Positions 26,501 through 29,500 of a DNA stretch of 40,798 nt are shown here, piece by piece. Position 1 is the stretch's first letter; every line of letters starts with the position of its first letter. The stretch lies in IMG/VR virus record IMGVR_UViG_2634166457_000005, positions 1 to 40,798 of that record; one strand, 5' to 3'. The DNA is from a virus (Duplodnaviria > Heunggongvirae > Uroviricota > Caudoviricetes). The position numbers are program-made.

Positions 26501-29500
26501 AGGCGAAAAAGCAGGCGAAGCAGTTTTTCATGGATGTTGCTGCCGGGTTATGTGAAGGGGATGGTCCGTTGCCGGAAAAGCGGCCCATCATTTTAGAGGC
26601 GCAGGATGTGTTGATAACCTACAGAGGAAAACTACCGGGAATAATTACTGGTTCTCTGAAGACTCCACCGCTGGCCTGAAGACTTAACATATCCAGGGAT
26701 TTGAAATCGATAAACCCTGATAAATATCCATGAACGCAAAAATCAGATACGGCCTGTCGGCTGCCGTTCTGGCGCTGATTGGTGCAGGGGCGTCTGCGCC
26801 TGAAATCCTCGACCAGTTTCTTGACGAAAAAGAAGGTAACCACACCACGGCATACCGTGATGGTGCGGGGATCTGGACCATCTGCCGCGGTGCCATCCTG
26901 GTGGATGGTAAACCTGTCGTCCCGGGCATGAAGTTGTCGAAGGAGAAATGCGACCAGGTTAACGCCATTGAACGTGATAAGGCGCTGGCATGGGTGGAGA
27001 AAAACATCAAAGTGCCACTGACCGAACCCCAGAAAGCGGGGATTGCGTCATTCTGTCCGTACAACATTGGCCCCGGTAAGTGTTTCCCGTCGACGTTTTA
27101 CAGACGGATTAATGCTGGTGACCGCAGGGGAGCATGCGAGGCGATTCGCTGGTGGATTAAGGACGGTGGCAGAGACTGCCGTATTCGCTCAAACAACTGC
27201 TACGGTCAGGTCTCACGGCGTGACCAGGAGAGCGCGCTGGCGTGCTGGGGAATTGACAGATAAGCAGAATATTTTGCTGGAAAATGCGGTTTGCTCACAC
27301 GGGCGGATAACACGAAATCCTGCGAACTGGCAAAAACTAAGTGAATAAAAGTAAAACCCCGTTTGTTGGCCGCAAGCGGGGTTTTGTGTTTCCTGACTCC
27401 GGAAAAGTCAAAGGAGAAAGTGTGTTTGATTTTAGCAAACTGATTCGGGAGATTCGAATGATGGCTGAAAAATTATCCACCTGGAAGTTCATCCTTATCT
27501 GGCTGGTGTTTGTGATTATGGCTTCCGGTTATTTCATTGGTCAGATACGCTGGTGGTGAAATGAACCGCGTACTGTGCGTGGTCATCATTGCCCTGCTGG
27601 TGGCCTGTGGTGCGCTTAGTCTGGGGCTGAATCATTACCGTGATAACGCCATAACCTACAAAGAGCAGCGCGATAAAAAAGTCAGTGAGCTGGAGCTGGC
27701 AAATGCAACCATTACTGATATGCAGCAGCGCCAGCGTGATGTTGCTGCACTTGATGCCAGATACTCGAGGGAATTAGCCGATGCGAGAGCTGAAAATGAA
27801 ACTCTTCGCGCTGACGTTGCCGCTGGTCACCGCAGCCTGCGGATCAACGCCACCTGTCCAGGTCCCGTGCGTGAAGCCACCGGCACCGCCCGCGTGGATA
27901 ATGCAACCGGCCCCCAACTGGCAGACACCGTTACACGGGATTATTTCACCCTCAGAGAGCGGCTGATGACGATGCAGAAGCAACTGGAAGGGGCACAGGA
28001 CTATATCCGCACTCAGTGTACTAAGCAGGCTTTTTATTATCCGGAGGATGTATGAAGAAATTACAGGTAACGGTAAAACCTTTTCAGGGAACAATTCCGT
28101 TCCGTGTTTTGCAACATGGCCGTGTTCTGCTTGAAGAGGTGTTCAGAGGTAAATGCACTGAATGTTATTCACGAACATATGAAGTGAATGCCACGCATGA
28201 AGAATTCACCGTTGAGTGTGTGATGAATACTGATAAATGCCGAATGGTATCCGCTGAATTACAGCCAGTGTGTTGAGCGACCTTATTATCCATGCGCGGT
28301 ATTGTCGCCGTATTCCTGCATTAACAGAGACCGCAGCCCGACAGGGAGACTCCTCTGCGAGAGTGTGCGGGGATAATCAAAAACGATACACACCGGGGTT
28401 TACCGCGTAAACGGAGCGCGGCGTTCTCCCCTCATGGTCGCCCGTCCGGTGCGATGGTGGAAGAAACTGGAATCTGTTCAATAAAAAAACTGCCGTGTTG
28501 GAGTCACAGCAGTAATGTACTGATTGGGTAGAAGATTATTATTGTTATGCTTTATTCTTATTCTATATGGCTGATTATTTCAATTCGGAATTAATACAGC
28601 TAATGTCTGTGAGTTTTTATAAATTCAGCAATATAAAGAAATAGTTATATGAACAGCCATCGCAGAGCATACTGTGTATCATTCTTTTTTATAGTCAACT
28701 GACGGGCATATTTTATGTCTGCTGCCAGCTCCCGGCGGCAAGATTCAATGACCCACGCAGAAAAGTTTCCTGAACCTTTCAGATCAAGAGCGATGTTAAT
28801 TTGTTCAATCATTTGATTAGGAAAGCGGATGTTGCGGGTTGTTGTTCTGCGGGTTCTGTTCTTCGTTGACATGAGGTTGCCCCGTATTCAGTGTCGCTGA
28901 TTTGTATTGTCTGAAGTTGTTTTTACGTTAAGTTGATGCGGATCAATTAATACGATACCTGCGTCATAATTGATTATTTGACGTGGTTTGATGGCGTAGA
29001 TGCACGTTGTGACATGTAGATGATAATTATTATCATTTTGCGGGTTCTTTCCGGCGATCCGACAGGTTACGGGGCGGCGACCTCGCGGGTTTTCGCTATT
29101 TATGAAAATTTTCCGGGATCCATGTCCGGTTTCTCTGCAAGTTAACTATATGAAAAATATAAAAACAGGCTGTCCGTGAACCGGACATGTGCAAAAAACG
29201 GACATGTAAACCGGACATGACCGGTTTTGTGCTGATTGTGAGGTAAGAGTTTTTGCGAGGTGAGGAGTGGCTACGCAGACTGAAGTTGCCAGGCATTTGA
29301 GTCTGACCGATCGCCAGCTTCGCAGATTGCAGAAATTACCGGGTGCCCCGGTCTCGAATAAGCGAGGGCAACTGGATCTGGATGCCTGGCGCGATTTTTA
29401 CATATCGTATCTGAGAAGAAGTAAAAACGATGTGCCTGATGGCGATAGCGAAGACGACTATGAAGAGAAATTGCTTATTGCCAGATGGGAACTGACAGCA

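Follow-up and report, generated by a model that had tools for sequence, protein, structure and literature searches.

The window, a 40,798-nucleotide stretch of DNA held in IMG/VR as record IMGVR_UViG_2634166457_000005, is a lambdoid prophage, and the region between its lysis genes and the terS gene is probably the cos site of a lambda-like prophage having its own cosB/TerS recognition pair, distinct from those of lambda, 21, and N15. The small terminase TerS faces a cosB composed of repeats of the unit CATGTCCGGTT(T), termed here the R sites, while the cohesive end and its flanks resemble lambda. The assignment of the repeats as TerS-binding sites is based mainly on the linkage of site type with TerS type, the covariation of one base in the site with residue 20 of TerS, and the fixed distance of the sites from the cohesive end. 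A packaging-initiation specificity of its own is expected for this phage, given that neither the sites nor the TerS DNA-binding domain matches those of lambda, 21, and N15. A somewhat less secure proposal, which is nevertheless judged probable, is that the prophage represents a fourth packaging-specificity group of lambda-like cos phages characterized by sites with a TCCGGTT core and a "MATQ" winged-helix TerS, to which the read-out rule described below may apply. The anatomy of the sequence, its conservation, and the linkage and covariation of the sites with TerS are observed directly and are described in turn.

The cos region and its repeats

Positions in base pairs (bp) are numbered from the first base of the cohesive end, 29072, as bp 1, and the features of the region are arranged as follows.

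29042..29048, plus strand: heptamer GGGTTCT at the cosQ position, located by alignment and 38 IMG/VR cos variants
29072..29083, bp 1-12, plus strand: cosN cohesive-end sequence GGGCGGCGACCT, matching lambda and 21, with predicted cleavage
29089..29120, approximately bp 18-49, plus strand: I2 segment, lambda-like to 29116 by megablast to lambda
29121..29132, bp 50-61, plus strand: R3 site CATGTCCGGTTT, invariant in the 38 cos variants
29143..29155, bp 72-84, minus strand: I1, integration host factor (IHF)-like site TTTCATATAGTTA, 2 mismatches to WATCAANNNNTTR
29179..29189, bp 108-118, minus strand: R2 site CATGTCCGGTT, inverted with respect to R3
29196..29206, minus strand: degenerate copy CATGTCCGtTT, its CCGG core disrupted, varying among relatives or missing from them
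29209..29219, bp 138-148, minus strand: R1 site CATGTCCGGTT, oriented as R2
29216..29226, plus strand: near-copy CATGaCCGGTT in the R3 orientation, overlapping R1 and kept in most E. coli variants
29267..29776, plus strand: terS, 169 amino acids, GTG start at bp 196, the same start being given by RefSeq in the 99.8% identical genome
29748..31676, plus strand: terL, 642 amino acids, 66% identical to lambda gpA over its full length

The shorter sequence CGGACATG has exactly four matches in the window, at 29121-29128 on the minus strand and at 29182-29189, 29199-29206, and 29212-29219 on the plus strand. A total of four is not unusual when 1.67 are expected; all four, however, are placed inside 99 bp, an arrangement with a rough probability of 6e-8. 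The full repeat unit is longer than CGGACATG, being 11-12 nucleotides, and has exact copies of CATGTCCGGTT at 29121-29131 (plus strand), 29179-29189 (minus strand), and 29209-29219 (minus strand), together with one-mismatch copies in cos at 29196-29206 (minus strand, CATGTCCGtTT) and 29216-29226 (plus strand, CATGaCCGGTT), the latter forming with R1 a near-palindrome, AAACCGGACATGACCGGTTT. Outside cos the sole one-mismatch copy of the unit is CACGTCCGGTT at 3526-3536 on the minus strand, which is within chance expectation. The spacer between the first and second copies contains a 27-nucleotide stretch with 85% A+T compared with 50% for the window.

A preliminary description of the window had reported a lambda cosN combined with four copies of CGGACATG, one of them inverted and with an AT-rich spacer between, at the place of the lambda R sites. 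Four matches in that arrangement are indeed present in cosB, but the copy at 29199-29206 sits within AAACGGACATG without the CCGG core, is degenerate and unconserved, and is probably not a required site, which leaves three good sites. In line with that description, the repeats lie where cosB is expected and do not qualify as lambda R sites, as neither the lambda R sequence CGTTTCCKTTCT nor the 21 R sequence TTCATGTCGGNCC is found in the cos region with up to 2 mismatches allowed.

R3 begins about 50 bp from the cohesive end, both in the window (bp 50-61) and across seven enterobacterial lineages (bp 50-52). Lambda R3 is placed at bp 50-65 (PMC9026076), and the title of Higgins and Becker (1994), as listed in the same source, gives terminase cutting at 47 +/- 2 bp from an R site. 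The putative I1 at bp 72-84 lies between R3 and the inverted R2 at bp 108-118. R1 does not have the orientation of R3 and instead points as R2 in the window and in the Klebsiella and Enterobacter relatives, the only R3-oriented element near R1 being the overlapping one-mismatch copy.

Conservation of the sites was followed in a close set of 80 IMG/VR loci with 99%-identical TerS, which reduce to 38 distinct cos sequences and are informative on site conservation rather than on divergence. R3, as CCATGTCCGGTTTCTCT, is invariant in all 38 while its neighbors drift and the DNA between sites varies, indicating selection. R2, as AACCGGACATG, is nearly invariant, and R1 with the overlapping near-copy, as A(A/G)CCGGACATGACCGGTTT, is conserved in most of the variants. 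The only freely varying copy is that at 29199-29206, which is exact just in the window and a few relatives, the 29196-29206 copy being swapped in other variants for ACAGACATG, ATAGACATG, ATAGACACT, ATGGGCATG, or ATGTACAAA. One IMG/VR locus (L083) has lost, upstream of terS, exactly 30 bp between the R2 and R1 direct repeats, leaving GTGAACCGGACATGACCGG, and the deletion looks like unequal crossing-over between R sites. Crossing-over of this kind was reportedly proposed by Feiss and colleagues as the origin of the simple cosB of N15.

The same layout extends to TerS relatives that are 62-80% identical and come from Klebsiella, Salmonella, Citrobacter, Enterobacter, and other E. coli. Each of them has a forward site at bp 50-52 and an inverted site offset by exactly 56 bp, and this R3-R2 offset is the same in the seven enterobacterial lineages (TerS 62-99% identical) though their spacer sequences differ. 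Six of the seven lineages have an IHF-like site at bp 72-75 on the minus strand, and in Enterobacter (L089) the site is at bp 85 on the opposite strand; it matches WATCAANNNNTTR perfectly in three lineages (Klebsiella, E. coli L096, and Salmonella L087), with 1 mismatch in two, and with 2 in the window. Three lineages (E. coli, Enterobacter, and Klebsiella) have R1, and four lack it. The relatives at 33-49% TerS identity are Pseudomonas phage LPPA33, Aeromonas phage phiARM81ld, metagenomic contigs, and an Azospirillum metagenome-assembled genome (MAG), the last being the one locus confirmed by a profile scan of genome contigs with the TerS alignment. Most of these have a single or tandem TTCCGGTTCCGGTT placed 20-30 bp before terS and no IHF site, and one (L182, 49% identical) has three sites in the lambda arrangement. 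The site takes the form CATGTCCGGTTT in E. coli, CATTTCCGGTTT in Klebsiella, and CGTTTCCGGTTC in LPPA33, with the core TCCGGTT common to the sites of the whole family.

The left part of the region is closely related to lambda, in agreement with the preliminary description. The cohesive-end 12-mer GGGCGGCGACCT has the same 12 letters in lambda and 21, and megablast against phage lambda records gives 94.9% identity over 28900-29116, an area comprising the cosQ position, cosN, and I2, and none beyond, the similarity stopping about 5 bases short of the first repeat. The heptamer GGGTTCT at 29042-29048, which is taken to be cosQ as reported by Wieczorek and Feiss, differs by a C-to-T change at 29046 from the GGGTCCT that lambda, 21, PhiR12_1, 38/38 of the IMG/VR variants, and the relatives examined, those of Klebsiella and Enterobacter included, have in this place. 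For cosQ natural variation is described as not apparent (PMC4669245), and the window heptamer may mark a termination-defective cos in a decaying prophage. The published extent of I2 is bp 18-50 (PMC4856287).

Relatives with the same class of cosB can have other cohesive ends, namely GGGCGGCAGCGT, GGGCGACGCGCT, GGGGGCGCTAAC, GGGGACGGCAGA, and GGGCGGCGTCCG, found in L087/L088 and L091/L092 (Salmonella), L089 (Enterobacter), L096 (E. coli), and L093 (Citrobacter), with GGGCGGCGTCCG being the same as the cohesive end of N15. The changes occur mostly in the right half, as the literature has for lambda-like phages, and some reach positions 4-7.

The small terminase and its covariation with the sites

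TerS is composed of an N-terminal region (residues 1-55) predicted to form a winged helix-turn-helix of the "MATQxEVAxH" class and a Nu1-like region from approximately residue 60 to 169. By BLASTP its alignment with lambda Nu1 is limited to residues 73-164 (46% identity), leaving the N-terminal 60-70 residues unaligned, and alignments with the gp1 proteins of 21 and N15 begin only at residues 64 and 59, respectively, whereas Nu1 and 21 gp1 are 53% identical end to end with the DNA-binding domain included. The Pfam model Phage_Nu1 (PF07471) covers residues 49-150 only, with an E-value of 1e-18. These alignments agree with the divergent N terminus and lambda-like C-terminal part noted in the preliminary description, and the latter would correspond to the Nu1-type oligomerization and TerL-binding region. 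Across 24 aligned sequences, which are 47-94% identical to the window TerS over the N-terminal domain, the invariant residues are M1, A2, T3, Q4, E6, A8, H10, R16, L21, P28, G34, D39, R42, Y45, and L49.

The AlphaFold (AF2) model of residues 1-64, with a mean predicted local distance difference test score (pLDDT) of 77.6, shows a strand followed by helices at residues 4-10 and 15-22, a loop or wing, and a helix at residues 38-54, an arrangement consistent with a MerR-like winged helix-turn-helix. The PHROG family phrog_57 matches both the N-terminal domain alone (E-value 4.8e-11) and Nu1. The hhalign alignment of TerS with Nu1 (probability 99.7) reaches into the N-terminal domain and pairs R16 with Nu1 R17, R20 with N21, and K23 with E24, although the per-column confidence is low. 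On account of the predicted fold, the shared PHROG family, and the extent of the hhalign alignment, the domain is interpreted as homologous to the winged helix-turn-helix of Nu1, though very divergent from it, and not as a foreign domain.

A profile search of PDB sequences with TerS gave no meaningful match, and NCBIfam contains no model for this TerS. The DNA-binding domain alone forms 42 clusters at 50% identity among 1.84 billion proteins. One protein of 2465 amino acids with 19 weak domain repeats (P0105) was dismissed as a translated tandem repeat. Many database entries of 90-130 amino acids hold only this N-terminal domain (P0039, P0074, P0075, and P0102), which also appears in PHROGs as a separate family of unknown function, phrog_7289; such N-terminal-only entries are probably terS genes truncated or disrupted by insertion sequences (IS) in defective prophages.

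The type of TerS and the type of site occur together. TCCGGTT is present upstream in every "MATQ..R16" TerS relative with upstream DNA except one that is very distant (L195), a linkage taking in Pseudomonas phage LPPA33, Aeromonas phiARM81ld, and the Azospirillum MAG, and the three relatives without the helix residue R16 have no CCGGTT upstream. Within the site, the base directly 5' of TCCGG varies with TerS in a set of 18 distinct TerS N termini with known upstream DNA. It is G in 5/5 types with Arg-20, which come from E. coli, Enterobacter, Salmonella, Citrobacter, and L187 (38% identical to the Salmonella TerS P0022), and T in 13/13 types in which residue 20 is Asp, Asn, Thr, or Lys. Residue 20, located in the predicted recognition helix, is the sole alignment column fully informative for the base (Fisher p = 1.2e-4, with no phylogenetic correction). 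The covariation does not simply follow clade membership, because the Asp/Asn types of Klebsiella (80%) and E. coli L096 (77%) are nearer to the window TerS than the Arg types of Salmonella, Citrobacter, and Enterobacter. The preliminary description had anticipated a distinct packaging specificity, which is a natural expectation for the region and one that is strengthened by the covariation of site and predicted recognition helix.

A read-out rule may be proposed in which G is paired with Arg at helix position 20 and T with Asn, Asp, Thr, or Lys. It may extend to the aligned position of 21 (Arg with G) and lambda (Asn with T), and it is speculation that the rule is shared with these phages by way of Nu1 N21 and gp1 R21. 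A shared rule conflicts with the published pairing of bp 56 with residue 24: in that account bp 56 and bp 59 carry the lambda/21 discrimination, and Nu1 Glu-24 clashes with the G:C at bp 56 of 21 (PMC4669245).

Relation to known packaging systems and alternative explanations

In the proposed mechanism the left part of the region (the cosQ position, cosN, and I2), being that of lambda, would serve a lambda-like TerL, and the right part would act as a cosB of lambda layout with other recognition sequences, consisting of R3, the IHF bending site I1, an inverted R2, and an optional R1. The N-terminal winged helix-turn-helix of TerS would read CATGTCCGGTT through the family core TCCGGTT, with R1 and the overlapping near-palindrome adding affinity. 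The TerS C terminus would hold the lambda-like TerL over cosN, approximately 47 bp from R3, and TerL anchored at this fixed distance would nick cosN and start packaging. Termination would proceed through cosQ and cosN independently of the type of cosB, as has been shown for lambda, 21, and N15, and any lambda-type cosQ/cosN should serve. Binding, bending, cleavage, and specificity are inferred here from the sequence. The PhiR12 phages carry this module (TerS 98.8% identical), and their deposited records give K-12 and E. coli C as hosts, indicating that the module works in viable phages.

The region shares with lambda the identical cohesive end, a lambda-like I2, R3 at bp 50, an IHF-like site at approximately bp 72-85, and an inverted R2, with terS starting at bp 196 compared with bp 191 in lambda. 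The C-terminal two thirds of TerS are 46% and TerL 66% identical to the lambda proteins, and the N-terminal domain, likewise predicted to be a MerR-like winged helix, falls into the PHROG family of Nu1. Differences occur in the R sequence, which is CATGTCCGGTT here and CGTTTCC(T/G)TTCT in lambda, in the DNA-binding domain, which is unalignable by BLASTP or the Pfam model, and in R1, which points as R2 and is dispensable in several lineages. With no lambda R site within 2 mismatches and residues 1-72 not aligned to Nu1 by BLASTP, the region lacks the sequence features of lambda specificity. Written from a common 5' end, lambda R3 is CGTTTCCGTTCT, the 21 R2/R1 site is CATGTCGGnCC, and the E. coli site of this class is CATGTCCGGTTT, and the three are recognizably related. 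The E. coli form agrees with 21 at the T/G position and with lambda at the next C/G position and has an extra G and TT. Lambda itself (L003) has at bp 37-49 the sequence TTTTCCGGTTTA, which contains TCCGGTT within I2 and lies 9 bp nearer cosN than R3 of this class; 21 lacks this element, and its presence in lambda may be chance or a vestige.

A parallel exists with N15 and Monarch, in which a single TerS/R-site type is likewise associated with both complex and simple cosBs (PMC4669245). In the present class the enterobacterial members have a complex cosB (R3-I1-R2 with or without R1), and the Pseudomonas, Aeromonas, and MAG members have a simple one with the site just before terS and no IHF site. 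R3 has a similar place in N15, bp 48-60, to that seen here, bp 50-61. N15 differs in its R3 sequence, GAGGTTGTTGTT, and in a TerS N terminus (MAVLLNKSDMASSLG...) unrelated in sequence; on sequence and protein comparison neither this R3 nor the N15 gp1 recognition helix, the marks of the N15/Monarch specificity, is found in the window. The cos/Rpp system of phage-inducible chromosomal islands (EcCICFT073; RppC, PDB codes 6HLK and 6HN7) is also different, as the domain in the window belongs to a complete TerS with a TerL-binding C terminus, has 16% identity to RppC, and is accompanied by a full phage head-gene operon with no Rpp-like hijacker.

The preliminary description considered the specificity to be possibly phage 21-like, in which case a gp1-like domain would recognize the repeats as 21-type sites. 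The layout of R3, I1, and inverted R2 is common to this region and 21 (M81255), the 5' half of the site, CATGTC, is that of the 21 R2/R1 sites (CATGTCGG) and includes the G at the position telling 21 from lambda, and hhalign puts Arg-20 opposite Nu1 position 21, where gp1 also has Arg and the 21 sites also have G. The likeness of this half to the 21 sites is genuine but incomplete. The core contains an extra C and GTT (CATGTCCGGTT) that CATGTCGG lacks, the family-conserved TCCGGTT is absent from the 21 sites, no 21 R site or CATGTCGG-core site is present within 2 mismatches, and the E. coli motif starts 3 bp nearer cosN. The gp1 DNA-binding domain is lambda-like and that of this TerS is not, its alignment with gp1 starting only at residue 64 when gp1 and Nu1 align over their full length, and a 21 specificity is considered highly improbable. 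An initiation specificity that is effectively that of lambda, or relaxed, with cosN and I2 sufficing and the repeats adding little, is also distinctly unlikely. It would accord with a cosQ-cosN-I2 segment approximately 95% identical to lambda, with the 66% identity of TerL to gpA, and with the packaging of lambda DNA by N15 terminase at about half efficiency despite an unlike R3 (PMC4669245). Deletion of lambda cosB, however, greatly lowers and de-localizes nicking (PMC9026076), R3 does not change in the 38 variants while the surrounding DNA does, and no lambda R site is present. The reading given the lowest probability is that the repeats are not terminase sites at all and bind another protein, such as a late or lysis regulator, or form hairpins or terminators in the late transcript. 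Two weak terminator-like hairpins do overlap R3 and R2, and genes for a Rha-family regulator and a YlcI/YnfO protein are located just upstream of the cos repeats in the near-identical genome. The hairpins were discarded for want of conservation in their arms, GTCCG in the left arm of the R2 hairpin being TTCTG in most variants, and the distances of the sites to the cohesive end and to each other are fixed across genera with differing upstream genes, with the sites tracking the TerS N terminus and covarying with residue 20.

Several points weigh against the assignment of a separate cosB/TerS recognition pair. All functional claims for this class are predictions; the AF2 model is of only moderate confidence, with Foldseek E-values all >0.1, and the covariation, drawn from 18 sequence types, is uncorrected for phylogeny. 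Because CATGTC is common to the site and 21, and TCCG to the site and lambda, partial cross-recognition is possible, and N15 terminase packages lambda DNA although the R3 sites are unlike. The I1 match in the window is weak (2 mismatches), and a different higher-order complex is possible given that R1 points as R2, which it does not in lambda and 21.

Prophage context, prevalence, and significance

A prophage of E. coli 2013C-3264, which was isolated from human stool, has 99.8% identity to that of the window over the probe. Downstream of cos the gene order is terS, terL, W, portal, and the rest of the lambda-type head and tail operon, with the lysis genes upstream. Two small open reading frames lie over cos, one of 66 amino acids at 29096-29296 on the minus strand, the counterpart of which in PhiR12_1 is annotated as a hypothetical protein, and one of 41 amino acids at 29020-29145 on the plus strand; such small frames across cosB are probably spurious gene calls. 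The near-identical prophage L099 (NZ_CP027544.1) has two IS3-family insertions, one of which splits an N6-adenine methyltransferase gene, and a frameshifted tape-measure gene. As L099 is 99.8% identical to it, the window element is probably defective as well.

The prevalence of the cosB/TerS types was calculated from 5426 complete E. coli genomes using equal 284-bp probes running from R3 into terS, with the following result.

Lambda type: 4012 genomes, 5657 places, inflated by the DLP12 nohD remnant
This class: 1185 genomes, 1923 places
Phage 21 type: 748 genomes, 912 places

With probes of equal length, this class ranks second in frequency among the cosB/TerS types of E. coli. The copy number in carrier genomes has a median of 2 and reaches 4, and the class is frequent in Shiga toxin-producing strains, often as 2-4 co-resident prophages.

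For the lambda-like cos phages the Feiss laboratory in 2015 counted only the lambda, 21, and N15 specificities as documented (PMC4669245), and complex three-R cosBs were named in 2022 for lambda, phi80, 21, and Gifsy-1 only, with the single-R cosB of N15 as the exception (PMC9026076). A 2009 study aligned the putative cos and Nu1 of the O157 Sakai prophages Sp4 and Sp14 with lambda, and the text read describes no R sites (PMC2669165). The trans-packaging of the defective Sp4 was attributed to the Sp14 terminase, the two putative cos sites being nearly identical (PMC2669165). Full-text literature searches for the site sequences returned only unrelated papers, and the class is regarded as undescribed in the searchable literature, which omits most subscription-journal papers.

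The class uses a known mechanism and leaves the general picture of cos packaging unchanged. The covariation between site and protein amounts to a directly testable recognition rule that might be employed to re-target cos packaging. Packaging specificity determines which co-resident prophages, defective prophages, and satellites a terminase mobilizes, and this class is relevant in that respect to prophage cross-mobilization in pathogenic E. coli.

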